From IMG/VR virus record IMGVR_UViG_3300046167_000222, positions 1 to 58,582 of that record: 58,582 bases of DNA; one strand, 5' to 3'. A program made the position numbers and the translations under genes. Below are positions 18,842-54,375 of this stretch, in pieces. The DNA comes from a virus. Taxonomy: Duplodnaviria; Caudoviricetes. Numbering within the stretch: the stretch's first letter is position 1; every line of letters begins with the position of its first letter. A model generated the notes under the pieces. It was not told the DNA's origin. It did no database searches and worked only from the letters and a program-made list of their open reading frames with translations.

Positions 18842-18880
18842 AATAAATTCCTCTCATAGCTATATGATCTGTTTAACTCA

Positions 18881-18906: not shown

Positions 18907-18908
18907 AA

Positions 18909-22917: not shown

Positions 22918-22948
22918 GCTGCAATATGGCAGCTACATATCTAAATGC

Positions 22949-23113
22949 TCAACGCACAATTCTTTCGCGCATCCACAGGAAAAAAAATAAAACGATTAAT
23001 GCAGGCTGAAGGAACACGAATAGGATCAAGTTCCATGCTTCATAAGATATGCCGCTGATGCTTTCCAGCCAGTAAATGGCATTAACACACCACATGAACA
23101 ACCAATCAATCAT
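22949..23113 (-). CDS. 54-aa membrane protein
   Basis: Start MIDWLF with RBS aggag; GISYEAWNLILFV; conserved in copy B. Confidence 0.7.
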   Translation of the reverse strand: MIDWLFMWCVNAIYWLESISGISYEAWNLILFVFLQPALIVLFFFLWMRERIVR

Positions 23114-23323
23114 GCGCTTCTCCTTTGCTGCATTAATGCTACCGAACCTTTGTGGCAATAATGTGAGAAGGGGGCGGGTTCGAGGGGGGTAGGCACCGGT
23201 TTTTAACCCCCCCCCACCTCTCGTTGATTAATACCGCTGTTCGATCTGCGGAGAAGCCATGCGATCTAGGATCGGGGCTTCGACCACTAGGTAAGTGCGA
23301 GGCAACGTCTCGCTCAATGTCCG

Positions 23324-23701
23324 CTAGGACAAGTCGATGGTAACAGAGACTTCACCAGCGTGCAGGTGCATGTGTCGATCGGGAGCCTTAAAGCCAGACC
23401 GATCTAGTATATCCTTGCTCGCCTCTAGCTGCACATACTCGCTCTTGGCTCCCCGAGCGAGCTGCACCAACTTGGCGGCGGCAACTGTAGCATTAAGCCC
23501 CAATGCCTCACCCACACACCGCATCATATACTCCTGCACATGCGGTAGCCGCAAAGTCTTGCTGGCTGTCACTCTCCCGCTATCACCAGCAGCGTAGCCC
23601 GCCTTAACAGCGGCCTCTGTTATGCTACAGCCTGTTGCTACAAGGTTATCAACCAAGGCCGTCTGTTTGGCGGTCAAGCCGGTCTTAACTGCATTACTCA
23701 T
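23324..23701 (-). CDS. terS: Terminase small subunit
   Basis: LTAKQ..ITEAAVKAGY N-terminal HTH and ASKDILDRSG motifs; first gene of the late strand. Confidence 0.75.
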   Translation of the reverse strand: MSNAVKTGLTAKQTALVDNLVATGCSITEAAVKAGYAAGDSGRVTASKTLRLPHVQEYMMRCVGEALGLNATVAAAKLVQLARGAKSEYVQLEASKDILDRSGFKAPDRHMHLHAGEVSVTIDLS

Positions 23702-33619: not shown

Positions 33620-34550
33620 GATTATGCGGATCAATGATCTGAAAAATTGCCTGACCAAAACGCTGCTGTTCAAATCCTTTGACGAAGGCGTAAGTGTCAT
33701 GGAATTTGTAGCCTCTCGCTCTGGCAAGCCACGCTGTTGTTTCCTGCTCCACCAATTCGATCTGACCCAAAGCCCAGTTGTGCTTGTGTCCACTGATGTA
33801 CAGAGAAGCGTTCGACTTAAACTTAGCCATCTTGTTCTGGGCATGAAGGCTGTTCCATTGGGAATGACCCGGCATATCATGGGCGGCGTGGATGCGGCAG
33901 GATCTGCCGTTCGGGAACTTCAACTCAACTCGCGCCTCCCAATCCTCAAGAATACTATGAGGAGAGCGCATCCATTTAAGCGGATCACCGGCACCAGACC
34001 ACATGTCGTGGTTGCCGCCAATCAGAATGAGAGGGTTCATCTCGTTAATTAACCACTCGACTAGCTTCCATGCTGTCTTGTGAGAGGTGTCTTGCTCGCC
34101 GTATAAGCGTCCTAGACGGCCTACCCAATTGTTCTGGTAGTCACCTAGGTTGCAGCCATACACACCCTCATACTCGTTGATTATACGCAGATGCTCACGC
34201 AGATTATCCCAATCGCAATAGTTGTCATCGATGTGTGGATCACCCATCCATAGCAAACCAATGGGTTCATCCGATTTCATCTCAATCGGTATCCATTTCT
34301 TTGCGTCACGATTAGCTTTGCGTTTCTTGAAACGGCTATGAAGATGATCGATCACCTCATCAATAGGAATGTCATCTTCTGGCAGTGGTGGGATGTTGTA
34401 TCTGCTATCAGCAAAGCTTTCCTTTGCTTTTTGAATACGGTTTTGAAGCGTTGCCAATGGTATACCGCTGGCTTCAGATGCTAACTTTAATGTGCCATGT
34501 GTGTCGTATAGTTTCTGGGCTTCATCAAGTTGCTCTTTACTGAGTGTCAT
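33534..34550 (-). CDS. Calcineurin-like metallophosphoesterase with N-terminal HTH
   Basis: GDPH, GD, GNHD, H and GHKH metal-binding motifs. Confidence 0.85.
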   Translation of the reverse strand: MTLSKEQLDEAQKLYDTHGTLKLASEASGIPLATLQNRIQKAKESFADSRYNIPPLPEDDIPIDEVIDHLHSRFKKRKANRDAKKWIPIEMKSDEPIGLLWMGDPHIDDNYCDWDNLREHLRIINEYEGVYGCNLGDYQNNWVGRLGRLYGEQDTSHKTAWKLVEWLINEMNPLILIGGNHDMWSGAGDPLKWMRSPHSILEDWEARVELKFPNGRSCRIHAAHDMPGHSQWNSLHAQNKMAKFKSNASLYISGHKHNWALGQIELVEQETTAWLARARGYKFHDTYAFVKGFEQQRFGQAIFQIIDPHNPNPVSWVQCFADPLEGAEYLQYRRSLRQ

Positions 34551-34960
34551 TACAATCCAACATAAGTTGTTTAAGGGCTGGTCCTCGCGTTTTTATTTGC
34601 TGATACCAGAGAGAATCTTCCATTTGAGCAGCAGCCTCGTTGAAGTCTCTATCCTCTAGCGCAGCAATTAACTTTTTGAAGCGCGAGAATCGAGGCCACC
34701 CAAGGTTGAACACCATCGATGCAAGCACTAGCTGCGCCTGGATCAGGCAGATCACGCCACCAATCCATGCGGTCATCAAGCTCATCAATAGCAACCTTAA
34801 CGTCATCGGCAAGAATGACTTTGGCTGCATGCTCTGAGATAGGTGTCTGAAGGTTATGCCCATATCCGATTGTCGGTACGCCAACAGTATCGGTATACAT
34901 ACTAAGGCTCTTGCCCTCATGCTCTGCAATGAGGTCAGTCAACTCTGATACTACAATCAT
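34537..34960 (-). CDS. Endolysin (copy B), 1-bp frameshift near 34737
   Basis: Two partial ORFs reconstruct the homolog of 319..738. Confidence 0.85.
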
Positions 34961-35298
34961 TTCTTAAACATCTTTGTTAGCTGTTGAACGCCGAAGCTGG
35001 CGGCAAACACAACACCAACGGCTGTTTTGTAGAAGTCAGGCATTGACTGCAACGCATCGAAGCCACGCTGCACGATGTCTTCATGCCCTGTGAATGCTAA
35101 TATAAGGGGGATGCTTACCAGAATTGTAAGCCATTCATCTTTCCAAGATGATGCAGAAGCAGATGCCATTGTCTGGTTCCACTCCTGTTCGCCAGCAGCT
35201 ACACGCTTGGCTACCTCAACCTTGGCTTTCTGTGTCTCGACCTTGCCTTCCATCCATGTGCCAGCAAGAGAGGCAACAGCATTGATAATAGCAATCAT
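34957..35298 (-). CDS. Holin-like protein (copy B)
   Basis: Homolog of 735..1076. Confidence 0.6.
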   Translation of the reverse strand: MIAIINAVASLAGTWMEGKVETQKAKVEVAKRVAAGEQEWNQTMASASASSWKDEWLTILVSIPLILAFTGHEDIVQRGFDALQSMPDFYKTAVGVVFAASFGVQQLTKMFKK

Positions 35299-35450
35299 TT
35301 CTTAAGCCACCGCTGCACTGTCTCCATCTCGTAGATGCGAAGCGCAGTCCATACAATAGTAAAGACAGCGGCTACTGGTGGAAGCATGTCTGTCACTGAA
35401 CCCACCGTTGCGAATATTGCTGCACTATCTAATATATCTTTCTGATCCAT
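35295..35450 (-). CDS. 51-aa membrane peptide (copy B)
   Basis: Homolog of 1073..1228. Confidence 0.75.
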   Translation of the reverse strand: MDQKDILDSAAIFATVGSVTDMLPPVAAVFTIVWTALRIYEMETVQRWLKK

Positions 35451-35458
35451 GAGTTAAC

Positions 35459-35906
35459 CTACTGCATTAATGCATAATACAAAACGCACATTATCACGCC
35501 ACCAACTAAGAACACAGATACGCCAATAAGAATGTACTCAACGATTTCTTCTTGCCGTCTCTCTGCTTCAATCTGCTCTTGCTTTTTCTTTTTTCTTATT
35601 TCGCCTTGGATCTTTATTATCTGTTGCCAAGCATTCATGCCGTACTGACCAGTGATAAAATTACGAAGCTCGTTCTCCATCTGCTCTGCCTTTCTTCATA
35701 GCTGCAAATGTTTCTAATGCTTCTTCTTCTACCGATCCAATGCGTCTGCCTTTTGCCTTAGAGTGGCCTTCCTTGACAGCGTTGATGCCTTGCATCCACC
35801 TACCCAAATCGCCAGCCATTTGCTCGATGTCTCTCCCATGCTGAAAGGCAGAGCAAATAGCTTTGTATGCTGTGCTAGCAAGCGCAATTCCGGTGACTGG
35901 ATCCAT
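35459..35906 (-). CDS. Hypothetical protein (copy B), frameshift near 35691
   Basis: Homolog of 1237..1683; 448 vs 447 nt. Confidence 0.75.
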
Positions 35907-35911
35907 TCATG

Positions 35912-36301
35912 TTACGTCTTTGGATTGTCGGCTTTGATCTGAGCAACATGCGTTTGCCAAGCCTCAAGACCGTTTTCTGTAATGTACTCAAGCTGGCTTT
36001 CTAGTGTGCCGTAAGCTGTTTGTCTTGCGATGAGCCATGCTGGTCTGTTATCGACATATTCTTCTGGTTCTTCTTCTTCTTCAACGATAGGCTCAGGTTT
36101 AGCTGAAGCTGTGGAAGTGAAACCAACTGTTGCGAAGCTTGGTGCAACGCCAGTTTTTGGCGCAAACTGTAATGCCAAATCATCAAGGTCAGCCTCCGTC
36201 ATGTCAGCAGACAGAACAAGCTCTGCCCAACTATTGTCGGCATAGCGAAGTGTTGCGATGCCGCCTTCAATCTTTTCAATGTTATAATTTGTCATGTCCA
36301 T
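35912..36301 (-). CDS. Tail-associated protein (copy B)
   Basis: Homolog of 1689..2054. Confidence 0.65.
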   Translation of the reverse strand: MDMTNYNIEKIEGGIATLRYADNSWAELVLSADMTEADLDDLALQFAPKTGVAPSFATVGFTSTASAKPEPIVEEEEEPEEYVDNRPAWLIARQTAYGTLESQLEYITENGLEAWQTHVAQIKADNPKT

Positions 36302-36435
36302 TTCCTCAGTGGGCAGGTAGCCGAAGCTAGTTCAACTTTTAGCGGCATAAAACAACCACACTTTTTGCATTGCCTAATGACTGATCGAAACCAATCACAC
36401 GCCTTACAAATCTCATAGCGTTCATCAGCCGTCAT
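36292..36435 (-). CDS. 47-aa Cys-rich protein (DUF6171-like), copy B only, not in ORF track
   Basis: MTADERYEICKACDWFRSVIRQCKKCGCFMPLKVELASATCPLRKWT; ATGA overlaps with both neighbours. Confidence 0.8.
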   Translation of the reverse strand: MTADERYEICKACDWFRSVIRQCKKCGCFMPLKVELASATCPLRKWT

Positions 36436-37511
36436 GCCACTGAACCCGCTAGTGTGCCTGTGTTATTCATAGTAACTGATGTGCCTAATACGGCTGCGCC
36501 AGCAGCCCCGCCGCCAGCACCACCAGAACCGTTAGTACGATTGCCGTTAGCGCCTGTGTTACCGTTAGAGGCAGATTGACCGTAGGCTGCGCCAGATTGA
36601 CCTGACCCACCGTTGCCAGCATTTTGCCCGCCAGATGCGCCGCCCGATCCACTTGCAAGTGTCTGGTTGTAGCCTTGACCACGCCCGCCGTTACCGCCTG
36701 TGCCACCGCTGGTGTTTGTGTTACTCGTTACACTTCTGTAGCACTTAGCCGAATAGTAAGCGTCATCGTTGTACTGACAAGTGTGAGTTCCACTGCGAAA
36801 AGATGAATTTCCAAATTTACACCGGCAAACTTGGGTTCCTTTTTGCCCTACCTGATAAGATTGAGTGAACGAGCCACAGCGAGATAGGTTCATACAACCA
36901 CCGTCTGAGAAATCCCAGCCTTTTCCAGCAGATGTTCCTTGGTACTGGTTGCTAGTCGTGGAATACCGACCACCACCACCGTTGCCGCCCTTACCGCCGC
37001 CGCCGCCGCCAGCCAGCAAGCTGCCAGCGTTGTTGATTGTCACGTTTGAAGCTGCGTTATTGATAGCGTGACCGCCAGCACCACCGTTAGCTGTACCACC
37101 CTTGCCAATGATCGAACCGTTGTTGTTGATAACAAGAGTGCCAGCAAGAGTGCTTGGAATATCCAGCGCATCATCAGACACGCCGCCAATGGTAACGCCG
37201 CTGTTGATAAGGATTTCTTTTGGATAGTCTACAGCATAGTCAGAACCAAATAATGTGTCAGCGTCTTGATCGGTTGATTCTGTAGTGTATGTAAACCGAA
37301 AGCCTTTGGCTTGGCCGCGAAAGTTGGTAAAATTTATTATGCCACTTGTAGGCACAGACGCAGCTAAATTTACGCCAGTATTGTTAGCAGCCTTGGCACG
37401 AATGTTACTGCCGCCCCGATACAAATCAGAATAACTGATTGCACCGGAGCCACCCACAAACTCTGTGCGTAGATCACCAAAGGATACTGCGCCTGATGCT
37501 GCTATTGCCAT
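36432..37511 (-). CDS. gp38-like glycine-rich adhesin (variant B)
   Basis: Flanks homologous to 2051..3190; unrelated central insert with 6 Cys. Confidence 0.65.
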   Translation of the reverse strand: MAIAASGAVSFGDLRTEFVGGSGAISYSDLYRGGSNIRAKAANNTGVNLAASVPTSGIINFTNFRGQAKGFRFTYTTESTDQDADTLFGSDYAVDYPKEILINSGVTIGGVSDDALDIPSTLAGTLVINNNGSIIGKGGTANGGAGGHAINNAASNVTINNAGSLLAGGGGGGKGGNGGGGRYSTTSNQYQGTSAGKGWDFSDGGCMNLSRCGSFTQSYQVGQKGTQVCRCKFGNSSFRSGTHTCQYNDDAYYSAKCYRSVTSNTNTSGGTGGNGGRGQGYNQTLASGSGGASGGQNAGNGGSGQSGAAYGQSASNGNTGANGNRTNGSGGAGGGAAGAAVLGTSVTMNNTGTLAGSVA

Positions 37512-37726
37512 TATGGAGTTCCAAAAGCTGTAATATCATCTGTAGCTATTACCGCACCCGCAGTCGTAAGCTTGAAAACCTCAACGCTGTTATAAATAAA
37601 CACCATATCAGAACCGTCTAAAGCAGAAGACCAGCCAGTGGGGAAAGCTGCAACATTATCTAATGCACCTGCAACGACATCTCCATTGGCATCAAGAAGA
37701 TCTGCTATATCTCTTGCTTTACTCAT
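37511..37726 (-). CDS. Small tail-associated protein (copy B)
   Basis: Diverged homolog of 3190..3405. Confidence 0.7.
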   Translation of the reverse strand: MSKARDIADLLDANGDVVAGALDNVAAFPTGWSSALDGSDMVFIYNSVEVFKLTTAGAVIATDDITAFGTP

Positions 37727-37735
37727 TTAATGCTC

Positions 37736-38116
37736 CTACGGTTTAGAAGGCCAGACAACATCTGCTAATGAAGAATACGTCTCGGTAATGTCACGCAATG
37801 CCTGACGATAAGTAGTCTGCGCCGCTGTCATCGAAAGATCGCTAGATGCCCACCAGTCTGTCGCTGCAATCAAGCGGTCACGTTCTTCACGGAGTAGCTT
37901 CATAGGCTCTGCTGCGCGAAGTTCTGCTGCCTTTGCGTTGACCTCAGACCAAGTTGTACCCCATTCAGCCACGTTGCTGCTTTCGATGGCAGAGCCATTA
38001 GCGTCTGCGCCTGTGACTTTGCGAAACATCTCGTTAAATTCGGCCTCTGTTGTAGGCTCACCACGCAAGACCCATTCGGTGATGCCTAACTCAGTTAGGG
38101 CTTGTGATATGCTCAT
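37736..38116 (-). CDS. Tail fibre assembly chaperone-like protein (copy B only)
   Basis: LREERDRLIAATDW..YRQALRDI..WPSKP motif. Confidence 0.75.
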   Translation of the reverse strand: MSISQALTELGITEWVLRGEPTTEAEFNEMFRKVTGADANGSAIESSNVAEWGTTWSEVNAKAAELRAAEPMKLLREERDRLIAATDWWASSDLSMTAAQTTYRQALRDITETYSSLADVVWPSKP

Positions 38117-38130
38117 TTTGTTTACTCCTA

Positions 38131-38652
38131 TTATGCTACTAAATATCCAAAGAATCGTGCGCCATCCCGAAGTGTGACGCTACTATCATCAATTATTCTA
38201 ATATATGGTGTAACAGTTTGATTTGCTGTAAGTTGAATTAACCCTGAACTGTTTCCAGTTTGATAGCTCCCACCTTGGTTGTCTTCAAGATACCTATATG
38301 CAAGGTCATTCGCACTATTAACAGGAGCATCGTCAATAAACATTTTCAAAGATAAATAGCTTGAGCCATCAATCGCATCAATCATAACACTACAGCCAAA
38401 ATGGTATATGCCATCAACCGGCGCAGCAAAAACAGCAGAACTGTTTAGAGTTACGTTGTTACCAATATCAAACTCTTTAGTGTCAAAAGAAACTTTTGTG
38501 TCGCTACCATAGTTTTGTCCAGTAAGGTTTGTACTTTGATAAACAGAAAACGCTGGTTTAGATGGTTGAAGAATACGACCACTGGTATCAACAGTCAGCG
38601 CAGTAGTACCCGCCGTGTTCTGGATTTGATTGACCTTTAGAATACTTGTCAT
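38131..38652 (-). CDS. C1q-like tail protein (copy B only)
   Basis: PAFSVY..VSFDTKEFDIG..FAAPVDGIYHF..FFGYLV. Confidence 0.7.
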   Translation of the reverse strand: MTSILKVNQIQNTAGTTALTVDTSGRILQPSKPAFSVYQSTNLTGQNYGSDTKVSFDTKEFDIGNNVTLNSSAVFAAPVDGIYHFGCSVMIDAIDGSSYLSLKMFIDDAPVNSANDLAYRYLEDNQGGSYQTGNSSGLIQLTANQTVTPYIRIIDDSSVTLRDGARFFGYLVA

Positions 38653-39149
38653 TGGGCAATCTCCATTAGGGTCATTGTCCCGCCATTACCATAGCTAGGA
38701 TGGTTAAACATAACCTCACCTACTGCCGCACCTTGTAACTTGTAGGTTGTTGCTGATGTTGTTGCGGGGCTGTCATAGTAAAATACTGTTTGGAAATCCA
38801 TGAACCTATGGGTGGTGCTGTCTGGAACGTGTCCTGTGTGATATTGGTTTGTTGGTTCTTCACGAATTAGAGTGCTGTCTCTATACAAATTAGTACAAGC
38901 TACCTGCCAATTGCTAATGTTTGAAGCACCATTAATATAGATATGATTAACATAACAAATTAGTATCTTATTGCTTGAGTTTTGAGGCGTTATCGTAGCA
39001 GTCATACCCGGAATATCTGCAAAGGATGTGCTTGTTGTGCTTAAAAGTGAATTTGCAGAAACACTAACAACCTGCACAACGTGACCCGCAATCTGAACAC
39101 CGGAGCCGCTGGTCTTTTCGGTGATTGTATCAACGTATAGCGTACTCAT
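38649..39149 (-). CDS. Tail-tip/fibre protein (copy B only)
   Basis: GHVVQVV..ATITP..SNKIL..DSPATTSATTYKLQ..MTLMEIAQ, typical of marine phage fibre modules. Confidence 0.6.
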   Translation of the reverse strand: MSTLYVDTITEKTSGSGVQIAGHVVQVVSVSANSLLSTTSTSFADIPGMTATITPQNSSNKILICYVNHIYINGASNISNWQVACTNLYRDSTLIREEPTNQYHTGHVPDSTTHRFMDFQTVFYYDSPATTSATTYKLQGAAVGEVMFNHPSYGNGGTMTLMEIAQ

Positions 39150-39691
39150 TGTGCAATCTCCGTAAACCTTATAGTTGCTCTGCCCTCATCAGTAGAAGAA
39201 GGATAAACAGTACTGGTACTCGCACCGGATGTAGCGGTATCAACAGACACCGATACTGAATTACCTGTCGTGTTGTTTATTTGGATAGCCGCGTGGCTAT
39301 TTACTTTTAACCAAGCGCCACTGCCACCGTAGTCATATGCACCATGTGCCACTAATGCAAACTCCTCTGAACCATCGACCAAAACTCTGAATTTCATCCT
39401 ACCGTCCGCGCCGTTTGCCCTGTAACTGCGCTGATAAAAAGATATGTCTGCAATAATAGTGCTTGTTGATAATTGAGGGGTGAAACTGCCAGCAAACGCC
39501 TGTGAGTAGGTAGAGGACGTAGTAACAAAAGGGCTAGATGGAGTAACGTCAACTAAGGTTTCTTTGACCACACTTCCCGCTGGCAGTGTCGCACCATTCG
39601 GGAACGATGGCTTGCCTGTGCTTGCGTCAATCGTGACAGCAGACGTACCCGCCGCATTGTTTATTTGATCTACATTTAATATCGAAGCCAT
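39146..39691 (-). CDS. Tail-tip/fibre protein (copy B only)
   Basis: SILNVDQI N-terminus shared with neighbours; ends in EIAQ like the next gene. Confidence 0.6.
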   Translation of the reverse strand: MASILNVDQINNAAGTSAVTIDASTGKPSFPNGATLPAGSVVKETLVDVTPSSPFVTTSSTYSQAFAGSFTPQLSTSTIIADISFYQRSYRANGADGRMKFRVLVDGSEEFALVAHGAYDYGGSGAWLKVNSHAAIQINNTTGNSVSVSVDTATSGASTSTVYPSSTDEGRATIRFTEIAQ

Positions 39692-41338
39692 CTATGCCAC
39701 CGTCAGATTTCCGTTGACGGTAAGTGTTACGTTACTGCCAAGCGTTAAAGGGCCAACAGCCAAAGCGTTGTCTGTCGAGCCTATGGTTACATTTGAACTG
39801 AGTGTCTGCGAGTGAACACGAAAGATGTCACCCTTGCCATTCGTGGTATCACCAGTAGCACCATTGTTACCATCGAAGTACCCTGCGCCAGCTTGTGGGG
39901 CGCTTACTGTACCGCCCACCCAATTTGTGCCGTTATACTGAAGGAATTGCCCATTAGTTGCACCAGATGCAGCCACATCATTGGCATCGTTGATGCTGAA
40001 ATTACTTACAGAGAATGTGCCGTAAGCCACGATGTCTACTGTGTCATTGACCGCTGCGCCAGAAGCCAAAACAATGCTTGTGCCGTTGGTGGCAGTAAAG
40101 TCAGTGCCAGAAATCAGCTTAATACCGTTCAAATACAAATCAACAAAGCCAGCGTCATATGTTGCGGCAAAGCTAGTTTGACCAGCCGTTGCTGTATAAG
40201 ACACACGCTGAGATGTTCCGTTGACTGATGATCCAGCGTTTTGGAAACCTGATGAGCCGTACACCTTCATAGTCTGCGCCGAGGTATCGAACCACAAATC
40301 CCCAGATGTCGGAGATGATGGGGCTGTTCCACCAACAAAGTATGTGTCACCAAAGTTGTTGATGTCAGCAAGATTAGAAGCAACAGTGTTGACATTGGCA
40401 ATGTCTGTGCCAACAAGGTTGACGTTAGCAATGTTATTAGAAACTACATCAATCTCTGAGGTAGCCTCATTGAGATCGTTAGCTACTGTGACTACTTTAG
40501 CTACTTCAGCAGCAATAGCTGAAATGTCAGTTGCATTTGTTGCAGCAGCAGTAACATCAGCAGCAATTCCAGCAACAGTCGTGATGTTGGCAGAGATACC
40601 AGCCGCAGTGTTTACGTTGGCAATGTTCGTTGCCACGGTTCCAATGTCAGTTGCGTCAGCAGCGACAGCGTTGATGTTGGATGTGTTGCCAGCAACGGTA
40701 GTTACGTTAGCCGCAATGCCTGAGACTGTAGTTACGTCAGTTTTAATTGCAGCAGTGTCAGTAATGGCATCAGTAGCTACTGTACCATCTTGGATGTCAG
40801 CAAGTGTAGCAATGTCAGCCGCAGCCGCAGCTACGGTGGTTACACCAGCAGTAGATGGGCCGTTAATAAGATCGCCAGTAACAGAATCAAACGCCAGCAC
40901 CTTGCCAGCCCGGCTAGCAAGAGCAGGCAAAATCAAATTAGCAGCAGCATCAGCATCAGTCAGGCGAAGTGAACGACTAACCTCATCATTAAGATCAGCA
41001 TTGATTGCTGTGATCCGATCTAACTCCTCATTCAGAGAAGTAACATCGAATGGGCCAGACGTTGGAAAGTCTGTAGTACGCTCAAGCGGAATGCTTCTTG
41101 TTATAACAACAGTGCTGCCACCAGACGCACCAACAACCGTCATTGCAATTGAGCCTGTTGCCCCGGAACCGCCAGTTACAGTGTAATCAGTTGTGATGGT
41201 TTTAAGCGTGCCGTCAACATATGCATTGAGATCGCCTTCTTCAAAGAACTCAAACGGCACAGTAAAGCTAGACTGTGTAACACCAGATGCCACAGTGTAG
41301 GATATTCGTGGTGAATTATCGCTCAAGTTAATTGTCAT
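39692..41338 (-). CDS. Tail fibre protein (variant B, 548 aa)
   Basis: First ~220 aa nearly identical to variant A; different distal part. Confidence 0.85.
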   Translation of the reverse strand: MTINLSDNSPRISYTVASGVTQSSFTVPFEFFEEGDLNAYVDGTLKTITTDYTVTGGSGATGSIAMTVVGASGGSTVVITRSIPLERTTDFPTSGPFDVTSLNEELDRITAINADLNDEVSRSLRLTDADAAANLILPALASRAGKVLAFDSVTGDLINGPSTAGVTTVAAAAADIATLADIQDGTVATDAITDTAAIKTDVTTVSGIAANVTTVAGNTSNINAVAADATDIGTVATNIANVNTAAGISANITTVAGIAADVTAAATNATDISAIAAEVAKVVTVANDLNEATSEIDVVSNNIANVNLVGTDIANVNTVASNLADINNFGDTYFVGGTAPSSPTSGDLWFDTSAQTMKVYGSSGFQNAGSSVNGTSQRVSYTATAGQTSFAATYDAGFVDLYLNGIKLISGTDFTATNGTSIVLASGAAVNDTVDIVAYGTFSVSNFSINDANDVAASGATNGQFLQYNGTNWVGGTVSAPQAGAGYFDGNNGATGDTTNGKGDIFRVHSQTLSSNVTIGSTDNALAVGPLTLGSNVTLTVNGNLTVA

Positions 41339-41380
41339 AGTAATCCTCTATCATGCAGTAATGCAGTTTGCCACGCACAA

Positions 41381-44300
41381 TTAACGGCGACCTGCGTTAA
41401 AGAAATCTCTTGCATCATCGCGCCACAAAGGTAGACCAACAAACGGCATTGCGTAGCCTAAATCTTTAGTGGCTCCCACTCTGTCACCTTTAAGGTAGCG
41501 ATCCCAAAGACGATAATATTCCAAACCCAATCCAGCCGGTGCGCCTAACACTTCAGCAACAGCATCGCCCTGTCTTTCGCTAGGTGTTCCGCTAATCCAT
41601 TTAGGCGGGATAGGAGATGTATTCTCGCGCATCATGCCAGTGTTAACTGCCATAGCCAGACCGCGATACCCAATGTCAGAATACACACCTAAGATGCCTG
41701 AGTGATCTACAACTCTTGCCATTGTCTCAATGCTATCTGCATCTTTCCACCATGACTGATCTTTGAGTGACAAAGATAGGTAAGACATACCAAGCAATGC
41801 TGACACGCCTTGCAATCTATAAGCCCTGCTTGGGTCAGCAATCGCACCAATGATCTTGTTGTTCGCACCAAAGGCAAAGTTCATAAAAGTAAACGGCAGC
41901 GTCATAAGCTGGCTGTCCATACGAACAAGAGCAGTCGATCCAGTAGATGCTCGCTTGTCTATTGCGTACATCTTAGGAAATACTTTGCGCATCTGTTGAA
42001 AGTATGCGTTGTCTTTCATGTACATCACGCCATCCATGATGCGTGGCTTATCGAACGTAGTAGCCATGATGATGGTGTTATTAGAGTGAGATGCAATAGC
42101 TGCCTGATACTGACGCACCGCTGCACGTTGTTGCGGCGTGTCTCGTTTCCAAGCGTCTGTGTTAGAATACACAAAGTCTTCTGACTGATGCTTAGTAACA
42201 GGAGCATCAGCAATGATCTTAGCCATCTCCTCATCGATACCATAGCGAGCCAGATACTCACGATCAGTAGGCGTTGATTGTGCCCTTTGACCATTTCTGA
42301 GACAGCTTAAAGAATTTATCCTGCACAACAATCTGATCTAACAGCTTGCCGCTGACAGTCACAGGCATCAAACCATTCATTGTGTAATAGACTTTGTTAC
42401 CAACAGCAGTAGCTTTTTCTAGCATGTTAGGCTGAATGCGCTTGATGTTATCAGACAAGATCTCTCTTGCAGCTACGTTGCGAGAGATGTCAAGCAACTC
42501 ACCAGCAAGGTTAGCCTGCCGGAATACACCAGCAACAAAGCCTGTGTCAGCTAACGCAGCCGCACCAGCCTTGCCCACATCCTTGTACCCATGAGCAAGA
42601 ACAATACTACCAACATCAGTGATAGCAGACACACCAGCACCACCAAGATAAGTCCAACCTGTCCATGACTTGACTGCTTTAGCTAACTGGTTATCCCAGC
42701 GATCAGGACGCTTGACGAAGTTACCCATCACTCTGTCATAGTCACCAACCATAGCAGCTTTGGCGTTAAGGATTTGATCCTCTGACAGCTTGCCTTTGCG
42801 CAACTCAGTCTCGAACGCATCCATAACTTCATCGATTGTTCTGCCACCGTATGTTTCAGCAAATGCAATCTTCTTACCCATGCGTTCAAAGTAGCTGTAA
42901 AGAGCGTCCTCATCTTTGATAAGAAACTCCTCGACCATCCACTCGGGTATATTGGTCTTGCGATCTTTAAGGTGCTTAGTGCTGCCACCACCAAATGACA
43001 GGTTCTCAAACTCGTCAGCATCTTCTTCCATGATCTTTGCAACAGTACGTTCTGCGTCTGCTCGGGTTGTGCCAGTGTATTTAGGATCAGGATTGTTGTT
43101 GCGTTCGATAGTGTACCACTCATCAAACTTTGCAGTCAGACGCTCTCTTGCCCCCTCATCTGAAAGCAGCAGCTTCTTGTCGTAATAGATTGGGAACGCA
43201 AAGTCTCTGCGAGGTGGCGAATTGATTAATCCTTCAAATCCATCGATGTCATCTCTGATCTTGTTGATTTCTCTGTCGAGGTCTGTGAGCAATTTGAATT
43301 GTTTTTTGGTTGCGCCTGCGTTGGGCTGTGCTTTAATTTTGGCTTCAAGCTCGACCAGCTTTGTTGTCTTCTCATCCAGCTTTTTATTTGCAGCATCGAT
43401 GCGTTCCTTTAGCTTTGCGTTCTTTGGGAACACACCAAAGAATGTGGCATCCTCGCCAATCTCTTTGAATGATTTATCTAGCAACACGGCTGCATTCTTC
43501 TGACTGTCAGTCATTGTTGCAGCAGCTTCTCTAGCAATACGAGGATTGCCAGAGTTTACTTTGACATGCTTGGTGATAGTGTCAGCAAGCCATGCATTAT
43601 ACTCTTTGTTATTACGGTAAAACACACCAGCAAAAGAACTAGCCTTCTCACCTATGCCTATGTCTTGCGCATGCAAGTCACGCAAGCCACGCTGCACAGA
43701 GTTAAACGCACCATAGTAGGGCAGGATGCGCTGCGCTAACGACTGCGTTGCTTTGCCTTCTGCGTTTGCTTTAGTGGCGATAGATGCATTGCTAGACATA
43801 CGGATAGCTAAAGACTTTGCGCCCTGCGGCATAGCTGGATCAGCTAGAAACTTTTGCAAGTCATTACTTAGAGGGTTAGAAAACTTTAATGTGTTGTCAC
43901 CGTCATTTTCAATAGATCCAGCTTCTCTTTTAGCTGATTCTGTTGTCGTATTAATATTTAGCTCGTCTTCTTTTGTTAGATTTACAGATCCATCACTGCC
44001 CCATATGTGGCGTGATTGCTCACCATCTACAGAACGAATAACTTTATTGACTGTAGATTTAATCAATGGCTTAGCGTAGGTCAGACCCATGCCAAGCACA
44101 GGCGACAATGCAGTAGATGCTGCAATGTTAAGCGTAGATTCAAAGTCAGCGTCAGCAACTTGAAACGGCTCTCTGATAATCTCTGATGTAGCACCACCAA
44201 CAAAACCAGCAGCAGCAAACTTCATAGCTGTATTAAGCTTTGATGCGCCGCCAACCACGTTCAGGCCTGGAATGAAGCCGATCAGGAAGCTGGGTATGTC

Positions 44301-44639
44301 GCCAGCTATGTTGGCTGTCAGTGCGCCTTCTTCCATGATCTGGTCACGCTCTAGCGCAAGATCAACCTCACCAATAAGAAAGTCCATATGCTCTTGGTTC
44401 TTGGCACGAACCAAATCATCATAGTACGGAAGATGGCTCTCAGGAATATTGGCAACAGCGTCATAGCTTTCATCCCGCACAACATTACTAAACCGCCTCA
44501 TCTCCTCAAAGTGACCAGCAACAGGCAGGCGATCTGTAAAGGATGCTTTGAATGTTTCAGTCCATGATGGAGCAACGGTTCTGCCATCAGCAAAGCCGCT
44601 GTCCAATGTTATGAAGAAATCAGAAACACCATGATCCAT
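41381..44639 (-). CDS. Large internal virion protein (copy B), frameshift near 42269
   Basis: Two ORFs reconstruct the homolog of 5959..9156. Confidence 0.7.
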
Positions 44640-46897
44640 TACTTCTGCCCTGCTAACTGCCTTGCTTTCTCACGTTGAGTATCTAATAGCTTGTTGATTG
44701 ATCTGCTTGTGTTACCAAGCGATGAAGCTTTACCACCAGCTATGCGTGGCTTTACTTGCCCAAGCTGGTTAGTGCCGGTTAAGTAGGCTGCTCTTGCTGC
44801 GTTTGCTGCTTCTAACTCTGCTTGAATTTGCTTTTGAGTAATTGCGCCACGCGCTTGCAAAACAACTTGAGGGGTAACAACGATAGGCTTCATGTTGTTA
44901 TCAAGGATTACTTTGTTATTTCTGTCTACGATGCGGTAGCTAGGAAGATTAGTAGGTACGCCCTTGATTGGCCTTGTGCCTGTCGTTGGCGCAAAGAAAG
45001 CAGTGCTACCCATCTTAAGAGTTTTGCCTGTGCTGTTTTGTTTTAGTGCTGTCTGCGCAGCACCTAAGATAATGTCCATCTCACCATCACGATTGTAATG
45101 ATGCTCTGGTGCAAAGCGTGTGTAGGTTCGCTGACCACCTTCTAATGCCATGTAGTCAGACTTTTGAAATACTTTATCAACAGAGTTTGCAATTATCTCT
45201 GCTGCTCTTGCTGCACCAAATGTGTAAACAAGATCGTCAGAGTATCTAGCAAAGTGTAGATTTACAGCGGCATCAGTGCTGCCTGTTGCGTCACGAACAA
45301 AGTCGAGCGTTGTTGGGTTTTTGCCTGCGTCACCAAAATGCTCTGCCATTCTTTTCTTAACAGTTTCTTGTGCTAATGGATCACGCTCACGCTCTGCTCG
45401 TTTAGCCATAATATCAGCAGGGGTAAAATCTTTGAACAAGGTTGTGTTAGCAACAGCATCCAATGTTTCAAAGAACATGATAGTGTCATCAGGAATACCG
45501 CGACTGTTGTAGACTAAACGCCCACCACGCATACGCTGCGTTGATTGCTTTACAAAGTTGCGCAGCATAACACTAGCCATTGGGTTGTCACTGTTCTGCG
45601 CAAGCCAGCCTTCAATCATGTCAGGTGCTAGTGCATCAGTAACAGACTTAGGTAGCTGTCCATTGCCCATCAGCACTGCTTGCTCTGGCGAGCCGTCATC
45701 AGATAACATTGCGCCTAGATTGTTAAGAACATCCTGCGGTGTACCAACTGCATACTTACCTGTCTTCAAGATGTGATCGCCAGCATTAGCAGACAACGGC
45801 GCACCACTAGCAGCCAAGCGGCTATAAGCACCGCGCAGCAAGCTATCTCTATTAGCCTTTGTTTGTGCAACGATGTTGTTTTCTACGCTGTCAAATGAAG
45901 ATGCAAGCTTGTCTTGCACATCACCAAAGCCATCTGATGCAATTACTTTATCAAGGCCAACAGCCTCTAAAATATCACGATGCTCTGGGTTAGTAATGTT
46001 ATCCATATTGCCAGTACGAATAGCGGTCTGAGCAGACTGCATAATGTTACCAATAGGAATGTCTTGCGTATATTGATTGTAATTATCACCAATGTTCTGA
46101 ATCAAAGCAGATGCAACATTGTCTAGCTTGCCAAGAAAATGATTTTGTTTCACATCATTCTTTAGCTTCTGCATCATCTCGCGTTCAGCAAGCGTAGGAA
46201 AGTCCTCAACTAAACCATCAATAATCTCAAGAATATTATCTTTATTATAGTCAGCATTATCGCCAACTACATCGCCGCTTTCATAATCCTTAGACTGCAA
46301 ACCAACCATTGCTCTTTGGTTAGAGATAGCTGATTCCAAGATCTGCACACGGTTTACAAACGCTGCCTTATGCTCAACACCAAGCCTGTCAGCATATAGT
46401 TTGCTGCCATGCGTAAAGCCTTCTGCATCCATTGCCTGCGCTAAAACAGATTGATACTTAGCCAGCGATGGGTCTGATCCAAGTCTCTTTAATGTTTCTT
46501 CTGAGTATGCTTTCCACTTGTCACCAAAAGCTTTGTAGTCTTTGGTTTGATCGTGCTGCGCATGCAACACAGATGCATGCTTTTGAGCATCCAATGTAAG
46601 CCGTTCAATAAACCGTTTGTCTGCTTCCGGCACAGCATTCTGCCGAGCAACCTTAGAAAAGTTTTCCGGTATCTCCACTGGCATTACTTTGCCATCTTTA
46701 TCTTTACCAAATGCAGCAGTCTGCCCGAACTGAGTACCTTTTAATTCTTCTGCGGCATACTTCTTAGCGTAGTCATACTCAAATAGTTTCTTGCCAATGT
46801 TAGACAGCGTTTCACCAGAAGTGTCACGCATAGGAGTAACAACGCCGATAGGCTCGTTGTAAACAGGATTGCCGGTAAACTTTGGGATCTCAGCCAT
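44639..46897 (-). CDS. Internal virion protein (copy B, intact 752 aa)
   Basis: T7 gp15-like position. Confidence 0.7.
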   Translation of the reverse strand: MAEIPKFTGNPVYNEPIGVVTPMRDTSGETLSNIGKKLFEYDYAKKYAAEELKGTQFGQTAAFGKDKDGKVMPVEIPENFSKVARQNAVPEADKRFIERLTLDAQKHASVLHAQHDQTKDYKAFGDKWKAYSEETLKRLGSDPSLAKYQSVLAQAMDAEGFTHGSKLYADRLGVEHKAAFVNRVQILESAISNQRAMVGLQSKDYESGDVVGDNADYNKDNILEIIDGLVEDFPTLAEREMMQKLKNDVKQNHFLGKLDNVASALIQNIGDNYNQYTQDIPIGNIMQSAQTAIRTGNMDNITNPEHRDILEAVGLDKVIASDGFGDVQDKLASSFDSVENNIVAQTKANRDSLLRGAYSRLAASGAPLSANAGDHILKTGKYAVGTPQDVLNNLGAMLSDDGSPEQAVLMGNGQLPKSVTDALAPDMIEGWLAQNSDNPMASVMLRNFVKQSTQRMRGGRLVYNSRGIPDDTIMFFETLDAVANTTLFKDFTPADIMAKRAERERDPLAQETVKKRMAEHFGDAGKNPTTLDFVRDATGSTDAAVNLHFARYSDDLVYTFGAARAAEIIANSVDKVFQKSDYMALEGGQRTYTRFAPEHHYNRDGEMDIILGAAQTALKQNSTGKTLKMGSTAFFAPTTGTRPIKGVPTNLPSYRIVDRNNKVILDNNMKPIVVTPQVVLQARGAITQKQIQAELEAANAARAAYLTGTNQLGQVKPRIAGGKASSLGNTSRSINKLLDTQREKARQLAGQK

Positions 46898-47330
46898 TAT
46901 GTAATATCCGTCATCTTGTCCATGCCAATTGCAAAGTCAGCTATGCCAGCCATCATCGTTGCGTTGGCGTTAATAGTACCCTGCGTCTGGTGTTCTCTGC
47001 CTGATAGCGCATACGGTTTTCAGCAAACATGCTGTTCACTCTGGCGCGATCAATCTGCTCAATGCTTTTATCCTTTGCCTGCCTTAACCCTAGCCTTAAA
47101 CGATCGATCATTAACGTCACGGTTGGACTTGCCACGAATAGAGTTGGCTGTTGAGCGATAGGTTTCAAAAGCATCAAGGCGATCATTATGCTCTGCTGAC
47201 CGCGAATACGCTCAAGCTTTGCGTTAAACTCCTGCTGCTCGGCAACGCGAGCCGCTTGCCTGCGCTGCGCTGATGCCTGCTGCATTGATCCAAACAGGCT
47301 TAACACCTGACCAAACATCATCAAACTCAT
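46897..47330 (-). CDS. Small internal virion protein (copy B), several 1-bp indels
   Basis: Homolog of 11428..11862. Confidence 0.6.
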
Positions 47331-49552
47331 TAGAATGCCACCTCTGTTACAAGACCATTGACTTGAATAGGCAGTGGTGCAGATTGAGAAATGGTAACGC
47401 GAGGATCCCTATCGTATCCAAGCACTCTAAATTCTTCCTTGCCACTAACGGCATTAACACCACTTGCCTGATTTTGTTGCACAGTACGGATCACCAGTTC
47501 TGTGCCATTGACTGAAACGCTCAATGTTTCCTCAAGGTCAAGAGTAACCATTGTTATCTTGCGGGGTCTGCCGGTCAAAGGACCACCCGGAACCGCGCCA
47601 TCAACAGGAAGCGTTTTGATCTCAGGAATAAAACGATAGCCTATCTGCACACTGGTAGATAACTTCACAGCACTAACATCTGCGTTGCCGCCAGCCACAG
47701 TAAACGTACCTAAATACTCTGTGCCATCAACTGCATGCACTACAGCCCCATCTGCAAAGTGAGCAGACACATCAAACACACCATCCACGCCAGTAAAGTC
47801 AGCGCAGAAATCCATCTTCATAGATGTGTTAAACTGTTCTAAAACCAGCTTCTCTGTTCCATCACCAGCATCTCTAACAGAGACACAGAATAAATCTTCA
47901 TCAACAGCACAGATAGAATGAAACTTGCCTTCAGTATTCCAACGCATCCAGCCAGCACGTTTCTCGTCTCGTAAGCTATGGAATACAGCTAACTCACCAT
48001 TATCCATGATAAACAAGCCATACGCGCCCGGTCGAGCAAGAGAGCCTTTGAGCGTAGTCATCTGCACAGGATTGCTAACTAAGTGGCTAGACAGCAAAGA
48101 CACCATAGTAGATGTGTAAGCGGCCTCTGAATCAGAGAAGATATACTCTCTAACGGCTGAGCCTGTTGCTTGTACAAACAAGGTTGCGCCATCAAGAGAC
48201 TGTGGCCTTACATAACCAGAGCCAACTGGTGTCTGCAAAGATACTTTTGCTTTTGATGGCGTAACAGGAGCGTCTTGGAAAGCAGGCACATAAAACTCTG
48301 ACTGCGATGCAAACACTTGCAAGTCACGGTTAGACACAAGATGACGTATCTGGTTAGTAACACCAACGCTTGCATCGATGTCGATAGCATCATCATCTTC
48401 AGCTTCACCAATATCAAAGTTGAAGTAATGCCCTGTCTTAGATGCCCATAATCCATCAGGCTGACTTGGCGTACCACCAAACCACAACCTATCCTCATGG
48501 AATGTAATAGCCTGTGGGAAGCCTCTGAGACTGCTGTAGGACTGTTCGTACCATTCAGTGGTAGGGGAGGCGCTTCTAACAGTTGGAGAGCCTCCACCGT
48601 CAACCTCGGACGTTGCAGAGGCCCCCGCTGTAAATTCGTATCTATTATCGTCAATGATCCGGCTAATAGTTCTGCTGCCATTAATTTTGTTAGCAGCGAT
48701 GCCGCCAAGACCACCAGCTTCTTGAATGTTTATCGATGCGCCATTAGCCAAACCATGCAAGGCATGCGTGACCTCTACCTTGTTAGAATCTTTTTTCGTT
48801 TTGAGAGCATCAATATCAAGCTGTGTTTTTAGTGTGCCTTGAAGGACGGCTGTTACTTGTGTGGCTGATATAAACGCAGTGATAATTGCTTCAGTCTCAT
48901 GGATCAAAAGCCTTGTTCCAACATGCGCTGCATCAAAATAATTCTGCGAGCAAGTAAGCGTAACAGTGCCGCTAGTTGAACTAGAAGCAATTGTTGTTCC
49001 TGCACCTTGAAAATTATAGTAAGGCTGATACTTTTTATTGCCATCAATCGATTGATCAAACTCAAAGATCCGCATCTCAAAGCTAGTCAACCCAGTACGC
49101 ACTAACTCACGGCACAGGAACGTGCGGTGAGCGATAAACATAAAGTCACCTTTTTGTGTGTAGGTGATCTGGTTTAGGTTAGAATTAGTAACAGGAACAG
49201 GATCACCATTGACATCAACAGTGAGGGTTTGAACAAAGGACACGGCTCCTGCGAGATCGATCCGAAAGATGTCGATGCGAGTATCTGAGAATGCAATGAT
49301 ATACTTTTCATCATCAGAGAAAACAAACGGCTCAAGACGTATTTGTTGAGCCAGTGAAGAATCATATGTATGCGTAAACTCATGTATGCGCTCAGTGCCG
49401 GGTCGGTTAATAACCCCGCCTTCAGCGCGAATAAAAAAGTTCTTTACAGATTCCGCAGCCGCAACATAGACAGGACTATCCGTCCTAGATCTCAGTGACG
49501 GACTAACTTCACCAAAAGAAAAGTTGTTTAGCGGTACGCGTATTCTCGCCAT
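47330..49552 (-). CDS. Tail tubular protein B (copy B, intact)
   Basis: 740 aa; motifs as in copy A. Confidence 0.85.
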   Translation of the reverse strand: MARIRVPLNNFSFGEVSPSLRSRTDSPVYVAAAESVKNFFIRAEGGVINRPGTERIHEFTHTYDSSLAQQIRLEPFVFSDDEKYIIAFSDTRIDIFRIDLAGAVSFVQTLTVDVNGDPVPVTNSNLNQITYTQKGDFMFIAHRTFLCRELVRTGLTSFEMRIFEFDQSIDGNKKYQPYYNFQGAGTTIASSSTSGTVTLTCSQNYFDAAHVGTRLLIHETEAIITAFISATQVTAVLQGTLKTQLDIDALKTKKDSNKVEVTHALHGLANGASINIQEAGGLGGIAANKINGSRTISRIIDDNRYEFTAGASATSEVDGGGSPTVRSASPTTEWYEQSYSSLRGFPQAITFHEDRLWFGGTPSQPDGLWASKTGHYFNFDIGEAEDDDAIDIDASVGVTNQIRHLVSNRDLQVFASQSEFYVPAFQDAPVTPSKAKVSLQTPVGSGYVRPQSLDGATLFVQATGSAVREYIFSDSEAAYTSTMVSLLSSHLVSNPVQMTTLKGSLARPGAYGLFIMDNGELAVFHSLRDEKRAGWMRWNTEGKFHSICAVDEDLFCVSVRDAGDGTEKLVLEQFNTSMKMDFCADFTGVDGVFDVSAHFADGAVVHAVDGTEYLGTFTVAGGNADVSAVKLSTSVQIGYRFIPEIKTLPVDGAVPGGPLTGRPRKITMVTLDLEETLSVSVNGTELVIRTVQQNQASGVNAVSGKEEFRVLGYDRDPRVTISQSAPLPIQVNGLVTEVAF

Positions 49553-50136
49553 TAACTTCGCCTTTCAGCAATGAACCTCGATGTTACAAGTTTGCGTGTT
49601 GTTTGCTGCTGGCTATCCAATGTCTTAGCCTGCTGCATTAACTGTGCAGCTTTCTTTTCAAACATTGTTGCAAGCTGCTCGTCTCTTGCAATTGCAAGCG
49701 CAAACGCTGCCGCAAGAGCGTACTCAACAGCTAGTGTAAAGTAGCTGGGGAAGTCTTGCTCACCAGCACGATATGTGTAATCAGCAACAACCACTTCATT
49801 AGCTGTGGCATTAGAGTAGATCTTGTCTCCATACACATTGTATTCAAGATTAAGATCATTCACCGTCACTGCATGCAGCATTAACAAATCATTAGGCAGT
49901 TGATGCGCAGTATCAAATCTTCCAGTAGGCGCAGCCGTCAAAGCATTTAGTATCGCTTGGTTTGTAGCAAACCTCCAACGACTAGCGCACATAGCAGTAC
50001 GCACAACATCCTCATACACATTTGAGGCAACAAGTGCCTCAGTGGATGAAGATGAAAAAGACGTAATTGGCTGCGCACCAATAAGAACCAAGGCGCGTGC
50101 CGCAATGTCAATATCTGAATTAGCTGCTGATGGCAT
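49552..50136 (-). CDS. Tail tubular protein A (copy B)
   Basis: Protein identical to 14085..14669. Confidence 0.8.
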   Translation of the reverse strand: MPSAANSDIDIAARALVLIGAQPITSFSSSSTEALVASNVYEDVVRTAMCASRWRFATNQAILNALTAAPTGRFDTAHQLPNDLLMLHAVTVNDLNLEYNVYGDKIYSNATANEVVVADYTYRAGEQDFPSYFTLAVEYALAAAFALAIARDEQLATMFEKKAAQLMQQAKTLDSQQQTTRKLVTSRFIAERRS

Positions 50137-50144
50137 ATGGGTTA

Positions 50145-50166
50145 GGGGGAGAGTTGTCTCTCCCCC
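50145..50166 (-). other. Post-capsid hairpin (GGGGGAGAG-ACAA-CTCTCCCCC)
   Basis: Compensatory variant of 14678..14699. Confidence 0.7.
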
Positions 50167-50172
50167 ATTCCT

Positions 50173-50985
50173 TTAGTTGTTGTCTAAGAGTTCGTACACG
50201 CCGTTGTCGTTGATTACGACTGCGCCCATGCTCATCATTGATGTAGCAAGATGTGACGCTTTTTCTGGCACATAGTTTAGCTCTGTAGAAACATCAGCAT
50301 TCACGCCAAGACCAACAGCCGAGGTGTGGTAAGCCAAGTTTTTGCCAGCAGTAACAGCAGATGTTGAGAAGATCTTGAAACCCAAGAAATCCTTCATTGT
50401 CATGCCACCAGCAAATGGTAGGTTCTGATCGCCAACAAAGTCTGACGATGCAAACTCGTTGATGTTGAACAGATCTGCATAACCAGCAGGAGACATCGCA
50501 ATGTAACGATTGCCATCTTCTGGAATGTCAGCCGAACCAAATGTTTCAAACAATGCAAGCAAGTTTGCTTTGCTAACAGCAGTACCAGTTGTGCTGATCT
50601 GTGTTGCGTTAGCACCTGTGTCCATTGCAGTGTAGATGATCTCATCTGTCTTACGACCAAGAGCAGCAGCAGCAGATTGTGCTACAGCTTGACGCTCATC
50701 AATGTTGGTCTTCAACTCATCTAACTTGTCGATGTATTCTGCGGCATAGAAGTCAGCCATGGTTGCCTCGACATTTGTATGTACGAGTTCCATTGCGGTT
50801 ACTGCGCCGTTGCGAGCCTTTGTTGAAGCTGAGCCTGTTCCGATTTTCTGAAAGCGTACAACGCTACCACGGACGTTACCAGATGTGCGTACTGTATTGC
50901 GGAGCTTTGACCCCATACGCTGATAAGCCATGTGAACTTCGGATTCAAACTGCTTAATAAAGGCAATATCAATTGTATTAGCCAT
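50173..50985 (-). CDS. Major capsid protein (copy B)
   Basis: Homolog of 14706..15518. Confidence 0.88.
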   Translation of the reverse strand: MANTIDIAFIKQFESEVHMAYQRMGSKLRNTVRTSGNVRGSVVRFQKIGTGSASTKARNGAVTAMELVHTNVEATMADFYAAEYIDKLDELKTNIDERQAVAQSAAAALGRKTDEIIYTAMDTGANATQISTTGTAVSKANLLALFETFGSADIPEDGNRYIAMSPAGYADLFNINEFASSDFVGDQNLPFAGGMTMKDFLGFKIFSTSAVTAGKNLAYHTSAVGLGVNADVSTELNYVPEKASHLATSMMSMGAVVINDNGVYELLDNN

Positions 50986-51094
50986 AATATTAAAGTCCTT
51001 ACCAAAAAAAGAAGTTACATTTTCACGCGGTTGTCCGTCTCTTGCCTCATCCAGTTATCCCTAGCGGGGCTGTCAGTTTGAAACAGGCCGTATA

Positions 51095-54308: not shown

Positions 54309-54375
54309 AATAAATTCCTCTCATAGCTATAGGACTTGTTTAACTCACTGCATTAATGCAGATCAACGCACAAAA

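Follow-up and report, generated by a model that had tools for sequence, protein, structure and literature searches.

The DNA analyzed herein is an IMG/VR virus contig of 58,582 nucleotides (nt; record IMGVR_UViG_3300046167_000222), referred to as a whole as “the window”, which spans ~1.65 lengths of a phage genome of ~35 kb, present as two diverged versions, A and B. The element in question is an open reading frame (ORF) of 47 amino acids (aa), hereafter the micro-ORF, which in copy B sits between the gene of a glycine-rich adhesin (allele B) and a conserved downstream gene (Table 1). Its ATG overlaps the TGA of the 359-aa adhesin ORF as ATGA, its 3' end runs into the start of the downstream gene, and its six cysteines (Cys) are arranged in the motifs C10-x2-C13, C23-x2-C26-x-C28 and C41-P-x2-K-W46. 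Allele B itself carries six Cys, at residues 206, 212, 229, 231, 245, and 257, all of them inside its variable insert. The extra ~126 nt that copy B has over copy A at this site lie exactly between two CATGAC junctions, and copy A is without a homologue of the micro-ORF anywhere. An original prediction, made from the letters of the window alone, had described a six-Cys insert followed by a translationally coupled 47-aa ORF with CxxC, CxxCxC and CP..KW in B, and in A an adhesin free of Cys that abuts the next gene with the ORF absent; both descriptions were confirmed in the sequence. Its proposal of a mobile two-part cassette also held, as the micro-ORF is coupled to Cys-bearing adhesins, co-occurs with them and moves together with the Cys-bearing adhesin variant.

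Table 1 Features of the window that bear on the micro-ORF and its adhesin (positions in nt of the window).
Feature	Position	Strand	Remarks
Micro-ORF, 47 aa, core of DUF6171 / phrog_13558	36292..36435	-	Six Cys
Adhesin allele B, 359 aa, gp38-like	36432..37511	-	phrog_10745, E 1.9e-45
Whole hypervariable insert of allele B	roughly 36699..36968	-	
Cys-carrying part of the hypervariable insert (residues 206-257)	36741..36896	-	Six Cys
Downstream gene, 129 aa, conserved, phrog_9114	35912..36301	-	Present in both alleles; far edge of the accessory slot
Adhesin allele A, 379 aa	2051..3190	-	0 Cys; stop overlaps the start of the next gene (1689..2054); slot empty
71-aa ORF coupled to the adhesin start	37511..37726	-	No family match; kept in A at 3190..3405
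Tfa-type tail-fibre assembly chaperone, 126 aa, B-specific fibre module	37736..38116	-	PF16778, E 3.6e-12; phrog_4912, E 1.3e-16
Genome copy A	1..23491		Within the window
Genome copy B	34222..58582		Within the window

The micro-ORF is a real gene under purifying selection. An exhaustive protein search, on which the homologue count is based, retrieved 2297 representative homologues at E ≤ 1e-3 (a word-index search gave 2 close relatives), and tblastn located homologues in 164 phage records, chiefly of Synechococcus, Stenotrophomonas, Rhizobium, Prevotella, and Leptospira phages. Neighbors of the micro-protein in the Atlas carry PF19668 and are 90-100% viral. The ORF was found in 20 of 80 loci related to that of the window. 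An alignment of 65 sequences shows no variation at the six Cys or at R6, K33, P42, and W46, while the adhesin-linked micro-proteins share pairwise identities of 39-100% and their 17 distinct DNA sequences give a median ratio of nonsynonymous to synonymous substitution rates (dN/dS) of 0.21 (69 usable pairs). A chance ORF was ruled out by this conservation and dN/dS, as was a C-terminal extension of the adhesin, since the micro-ORF has its own start and stands apart from the adhesin in five loci.

The name “DUF6171-like”, given to the encoded protein in the original prediction, proved correct but marginal, with a match to PF19668 at E 4.9e-6 and 27.3 bits against a gathering cut-off of 27, and with phrog_13558 in agreement (E 1.5e-14). 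The Pfam alignment covers model positions 40-80 of 80 only, so the micro-ORF corresponds to the conserved C-terminal core of the family without the N-terminal half of the model, and the six-Cys core of the family (C-x2-C-x9-C-x2-C-x-C-x12-C-P) is complete in it. Below E 0.06 a Pfam scan of the micro-ORF returned DUF6171 and no other family (zn-ribbon_14 scored E 0.69), no thioredoxin-fold, DsbA or Erv/ALR family of Pfam matched the 47 residues at E ≤ 1, and no profile of tail fibre assembly chaperones (Tfa, PF16778 and relatives) matched either. Ferredoxin-type 4Fe-4S motifs read C-x2-C-x2-C-x3-C-P; the micro-ORF, with C-x2-C-x-C-x12-C-P, departs from this spacing and is similar only in the terminal C-P. 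An AlphaFold2 (AF2) model of the micro-protein has a predicted local distance difference test score (pLDDT) of 93.9. It gave 0 Foldseek matches in the PDB at E ≤ 10 and a best VIA-align Z of 2.5, small domains being hard to match, and a profile search of PDB sequences stayed at chance level, with no hit below E 0.47. The micro-protein is probably a metal-stabilized mini-domain, and its model matched no solved fold.

In the adhesins, a conserved N-terminal part is combined with glycine-rich motifs and a single long hypervariable insert, and the glycine-rich blocks are invariant in an alignment of 45 sequences. The gp38 adhesins of the T2/T6/S16/PP01 type follow the same plan, and here as there the adhesin gene closes the fibre cluster, immediately ahead of the lysis genes; as described in PMC12032242, they combine an attachment/beta-helix part and glycine-rich motifs with variable tip segments. 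These segments are short loops in gp38 adhesins, whereas the window adhesin family has instead a single insert of 75-133 residues. Allele B does not reach the Pfam GP38 family (PF05268; 10.4 bits with the cut-off at 25, E 0.56). In the AF2 model of allele B (mean pLDDT 78), the beta-helix and glycine-rich parts are confident and the insert is poorly defined (pLDDT <50 at residues 195-225 and 245-248), and its Foldseek matches in the PDB are the gp38 proteins of S16 (6f45_D, E 1e-6, template modeling scores 0.35/0.48) and PP01 (9v85_C, E 1.7e-6), the next best after the gp38 adhesins being at E 0.8. On the strength of the model, the upstream protein should work as a gp38-type adhesin, with the insert forming the receptor-binding tip. 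The full adhesin was absent from the cultured phages searched, where only the N-terminal 65-76 residues match, namely to short, Cys-free proteins of two Xanthomonas jumbo phages.

The main adhesin family comprises 80 viral loci with adhesin relatives and 76 complete adhesins, both window alleles included. Where the micro-ORF is present (21 of the 76), the adhesin has 3-10 Cys; where it is absent, the counts are 0 (5 loci), 1 (38), 2 (9), 3 (2), and 4 (1), with the reservation that two of these 55 loci extend just 129-160 nt downstream. Counting the insert only, the 17 distinct ORF-linked adhesins hold 2 (1), 4 (7), 5 (2), 6 (6) or 8 (1) Cys and the 25 parsable distinct ORF-less adhesins hold 0 (22), 1 (2) or 2 (1), the lone Cys of most ORF-less adhesins being located in the scaffold. 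The insert number is even in 15 of the 17 ORF-linked adhesins, and these mostly even counts suggest disulfides. The micro-ORF always lies downstream of the adhesin on the same strand, and in 16 of 21 loci its start codon runs into or directly adjoins the adhesin stop; a 45-nt gap separates the two in loci L030-L032, and another gene does so in L046 and L081. The gene slot downstream of the adhesin is empty in 24 ORF-less loci (overlap of -9 or -12 nt), contains the micro-ORF alone in 19 loci (130-179 nt) and the micro-ORF preceded by a 156-aa ORF in 2 loci (591 nt), and is taken up by an unrelated 238-aa ORF in 2 further loci, whose adhesin has 2 insert Cys. The same pattern is seen across whole records: none of the five with a Cys-poor adhesin has a homologue of the micro-ORF anywhere (three of them are ≥90% complete), and all five with a Cys-rich adhesin have exactly one each. 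As a side observation on the slot, the 156-aa ORF (L081, 2011..2481, with a match in L046), which stands between adhesin and micro-ORF, bears a PF13489 methyltransferase signature below the cut-off (E 0.0013), and the 238-aa ORF (L058, 4221..4937; also in L059), which has no family match, may be a different adhesin-specific accessory gene.

The pairing of micro-ORF and Cys outlasts the turnover of the inserts. Cys-bearing inserts form about six groups without detectable mutual similarity, all of which keep their cysteines and the micro-ORF, and most Cys-free inserts belong to one loose group. A tree of the N-terminal 135 residues (74 rows) requires 8 changes of ORF state, no fewer than 3 of which are made unavoidable by well-supported branches, and the 3 supported independent pairs are all concordant with a count of at least three Cys. 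The adhesins of L024 (ORF, 7 Cys) and L022 (no ORF, 1 Cys) are ~95% identical up to residue 180 and divergent beyond. Divergence is greater over the entire adhesin than in the regions on either side of it, which places the micro-ORF inside a recombining block.

The association recurs outside the main family. In a distant branch of 12 loci (41% identity to the window adhesin), the ORF is present in 5, of which one has an adhesin fragment and four have complete adhesins, each with 8 Cys; the 7 ORF-less loci have 0, 0, 0, 0, 1, 3, and 3 Cys. A second glycine-rich adhesin family, which has no BLASTP similarity to the window adhesin (E 1.4), was compared over 30 loci; every one of its 16 loci with the ORF has 5 Cys, and its 13 complete ORF-less loci have 0 (6), 1 (5), 2 (1), and 6 (1; a 593-aa protein). 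Across these three families, all 41 complete adhesins that precede the micro-ORF carry at least 3 Cys. In addition, a freshwater myovirus record encodes a different glycine-rich protein with 6 Cys and a homologue of the micro-ORF 1 nt downstream (the replicate search found 1 related locus for this adhesin family), and in the Synechococcus siphovirus S-LBS1 the homologue overlaps the last part of a gene for a 740-aa tail protein that contains 13 Cys.

We favor a functional tie between the micro-protein and the Cys-bearing tips because the pairing survives insert turnover, the two genes are translationally coupled, the micro-ORF is under purifying selection, the pairing recurs in unrelated adhesins and the ORF is absent from genomes with Cys-free adhesins. 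On the sequence evidence, we consider the chances about even that the micro-protein is a metal-binding partner or assembly factor of Cys-bearing adhesins; its physical contact with the adhesin, its metal binding and its thiol chemistry are inferred. Translational coupling would have the small metal-stabilized six-Cys domain made together with the glycine-rich gp38-like adhesin, as the cognate partner of those adhesin variants that have Cys in the receptor-binding insert. The micro-protein would bind the nascent Cys-bearing insert in the reducing cytoplasm and hold, metallate or pair its thiols, the adhesin tip thereby reaching its final disulfide- or metal-stabilized form, after which the micro-protein might either leave, as a chaperone does, or stay on the virion as a subunit. 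A more far-reaching version is less likely than not: the DUF6171 mini-domain would be a portable, dedicated maturation or partner factor that supplies metal or manages thiols, enables disulfide- or metal-stabilized loops despite the reducing cytoplasm and moves with these loops as a two-gene host-range cassette, and DUF6171 would be a new metal-binding fold that is reused as an appended module on phage glycosyltransferases and kinases.

An accessory gene cognate to a receptor-binding gene is a known theme, and the six-Cys form seen here is new. Genes just after fibre or adhesin genes commonly encode cognate assembly factors, as PMC9608196 describes for Pam3 gp25, which serves the glycine-rich fibre gp24. 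Like the window pair, gp24/gp25 joins a glycine-rich fibre tip to a dedicated protein from the adjacent gene; gp25, however, is a two-domain trimeric chaperone (beta-sandwich and helical), whereas the micro-protein is a six-Cys domain of 47 residues. A further comparison is offered by the T4 fibre chaperones gp38 and gp57A, to be set beside a micro-protein whose single Pfam match below E 0.06 is DUF6171. Copy B already encodes a classical fibre chaperone (PF16778, Table 1), hence the micro-ORF is not simply the usual chaperone. Small proteins with Cys motifs that handle client thiols in a reducing cytoplasm include the poxvirus E10R-A2.5L-G4L pathway, Hsp33 and the zinc-finger domain of DnaJ. 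The idea behind such viral disulfide pathways and zinc-centre redox chaperones is common to our case, and the micro-protein has CxxC and CxC motifs as well; it has no sequence or fold match to the thioredoxin, Erv or Hsp33 families in Pfam, PDB, Foldseek or VIA-align searches. Disulfides are present in phage tail fibres and are functionally important in the Pam3 tail, where, according to PMC9942802, they link the fibre to the baseplate and are not within a receptor-binding insert. A small Cys-rich gene after gp38 is not described in PMC12032242, in which the words “cysteine” and “disulfide” do not occur. Literature searches for DUF6171, PF19668, and phrog_13558 found no paper, the family being without a described function, and nothing relevant came up for Cys, zinc and glycine-rich adhesins.

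The DUF6171 family is met mostly in gene contexts other than the adhesin. We surveyed it with a degenerate DNA pattern for C-x2-C-G-C-F-M-P, which samples this motif variant only, and obtained at least 120 loci; the figures that follow are for the 116 loci confirmed by profile among the matches listed. A same-strand ORF ends within 150 nt upstream of the domain in 86 of the 116, and these upstream genes form 37 groups, among them a small basic domain (6 loci), the adhesin family (4), portal, epimerase and others. The predicted co-occurrence of the micro-ORF with Cys stood within glycine-rich adhesins, in three families, and failed for the family at large. In the Stenotrophomonas and T4-like cyanophage genomes, the DUF6171 gene is found among small early or nucleotide-metabolism genes. 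Within longer proteins, the domain sits at either end, many fusions being with unassigned domains of ~220 aa and some containing tandem repeats. From the non-adhesin contexts and the Cys-poor, glycine-poor fusions detailed below, we conclude that the DUF6171 domain is a general-purpose module and that the Cys link is specific to the adhesin context.

Several side observations were made on the family. Fused proteins are P0157, P0160, P0166, P0167, P0176, P0177, P0183, P0193, P0195, P0216, P0247, and P0252, in which the partners are GT60-type glycosyltransferases, a P-loop kinase, DUF6065, and a DxD-containing domain (phrog_4417), and P0006, P0045, and P0107 (241-383 aa) show 3-6 tandem matches to the micro-domain. 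Cyanophage DUF6171 genes also adjoin 2-oxoglutarate-Fe(II) (2OG-Fe(II)) oxygenases. The enzyme fusions and these neighbors hint at a role beside modification enzymes. Six of the surveyed loci (L140, L127 and relatives) have upstream a very basic protein of 93-133 aa with 3-6 Cys, which matches the C-terminal ends of the large families phrog_727 and phrog_3477.

These wider contexts bear on an alternative that we regard as rather unlikely, namely that the micro-ORF is a generic zinc-ribbon-like module (nucleic-acid-binding, regulatory or an adaptor of modification enzymes) which rides in one old adhesin-cassette lineage without direct function for the adhesin, so that the Cys link is due to common descent. 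Several of our results weigh on that side or against the functional tie. Co-inheritance in a recombining block can by itself produce the Cys association; the main family provides just 3 well-supported contrasts, on which a sign test cannot reach significance, and the ORF-bearing loci may be a single clade in each replicate family, i.e., about one contrast each. Across the family, the domain is found mostly next to genes that are DNA-related or early (UvsX, terminase, a C5-methyltransferase-like gene, nucleotide metabolism, RusA), the upstream groups of the survey including a UvsX-like recombinase (15 loci, 0-1 Cys), terminase (13), and phrog_26179 (7), and upstream Cys are not enriched (median 0.99% vs. 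0.82% in 811 background genes, p 0.39, and p 0.086 when compared per group). As fusion partners the domain has GT60-type glycosyltransferases (7 clusters), a P-loop kinase (3), and DUF6065 (1), the glycosyltransferase and kinase partner domains carrying no Cys; several fused proteins have no Cys beyond the six of the domain, and the long forms examined are not glycine-rich (at most 9.7% glycine). No adhesin-to-micro-domain fusion was found among 120 longer proteins, which leaves no fusion-based argument for contact and means that the domain may have a generic role. The micro-protein is basic (9 K/R vs. 5 D/E), and a tree of the micro-domain clusters by context, which fits vertical inheritance. 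Some individual loci also break the rule: L058 and L059 (3 Cys), L073 (4), L217 and L218 (3), and L239 (6 in 593 aa) are without the ORF, and in Xanthomonas phage X1 the homologue is far from the adhesin-like gene, which has no Cys. The 5 Cys kept by the second family do not fit an all-disulfide model everywhere. Common descent is nevertheless hard to reconcile with the recurrence of the association in adhesin families without detectable similarity and in a myovirus, the more so as the adhesin-linked micro-domains of these unrelated families do not group together on the tree and recent cassette transfer is not indicated. It would also have to account for mutually unalignable Cys inserts, none of which has lost its cysteines or the ORF, and for the finding that 0 of 41 complete adhesins preceding the ORF drop below 3 Cys.

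Two further explanations were considered. If the micro-protein stayed on the adhesin tip as a virion subunit, through intermolecular disulfides or a shared metal site, then translational coupling, which suggests production in step with the adhesin, would be in place, and the odd count of 5 Cys in the second family would leave at least one thiol unpaired for such a bond; according to PMC9942802, Pam3 fibres are held on the baseplate by intermolecular disulfides. We nonetheless hold this to be improbable, given that the mini-protein is far more conserved than the inserts, that other family members are fused to cytoplasmic enzymes and that no result of the analysis shows contact. When the micro-protein and adhesin residues 140-359 (both supplied as alignments) were submitted to complex prediction, two runs without controls scored 0.00, which counts neither for nor against a complex. 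It is more improbable by far that the micro-protein masks the receptor or excludes superinfection, co-varying with the adhesin via a common host receptor. T5 Llp is a factor of the superinfection-exclusion type that is encoded beside a receptor-binding gene, and the position of the micro-ORF beside a specificity determinant and its co-variation with adhesin type are the only points in favor of this, whereas the 47 residues show no signal peptide, lipobox or hydrophobic segment, the sequence stays conserved among adhesins whose inserts, and presumably receptors, differ, and the ORF follows the Cys content of the insert rather than a particular insert type.

The host range of a phage is set by its receptor-binding tips. 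If the preferred reading is true and Cys tips need the mini-protein, host-range modules of this kind would be two-gene units, which would matter for predicting and engineering specificity. It would also give a first functional handle on a large, almost purely viral family (2297 representative clusters), and the handling of thiols and metals by virion proteins in the bacterial cytoplasm would become testable with a 47-residue protein.

With regard to the phage itself, family matches in the window to a head-tail adaptor/portal-like protein (phrog_332, E 4.6e-95), a major head protein, terminase, the tail protein phrog_376, and an endolysin indicate that it is a small tailed phage. Over 92% of its length, the portal-like protein shares 63% identity with that of Pelagibacter phage EXVC031P (34-kb genome), which makes a SAR11-type host likely; the phages concerned are abundant uncultured marine podoviruses. 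Copies A and B are 91-94% identical over most genes outside the tail-fibre and adhesin genes, and their head-to-tail joining may reflect a concatemer, a tandem arrangement or a chimeric metagenome assembly. In B, the counterparts of the 517-aa portal-like protein and of the 506-aa terminase of A are each split in two, and the 752- and 740-aa proteins of B are fragmented in A; with genes split in each copy relative to the other, indel errors or decay are likely. The fibre modules differ as well. In A (3415..5916) there is one 833-aa fibre with internal tandem repeats (5012-5260), and in B (37736..41338) a 548-aa fibre with the same N-terminus is accompanied by three small fibre-like proteins (181 aa, 166 aa, and a C1q-like protein of 173 aa) and the Tfa-type chaperone.

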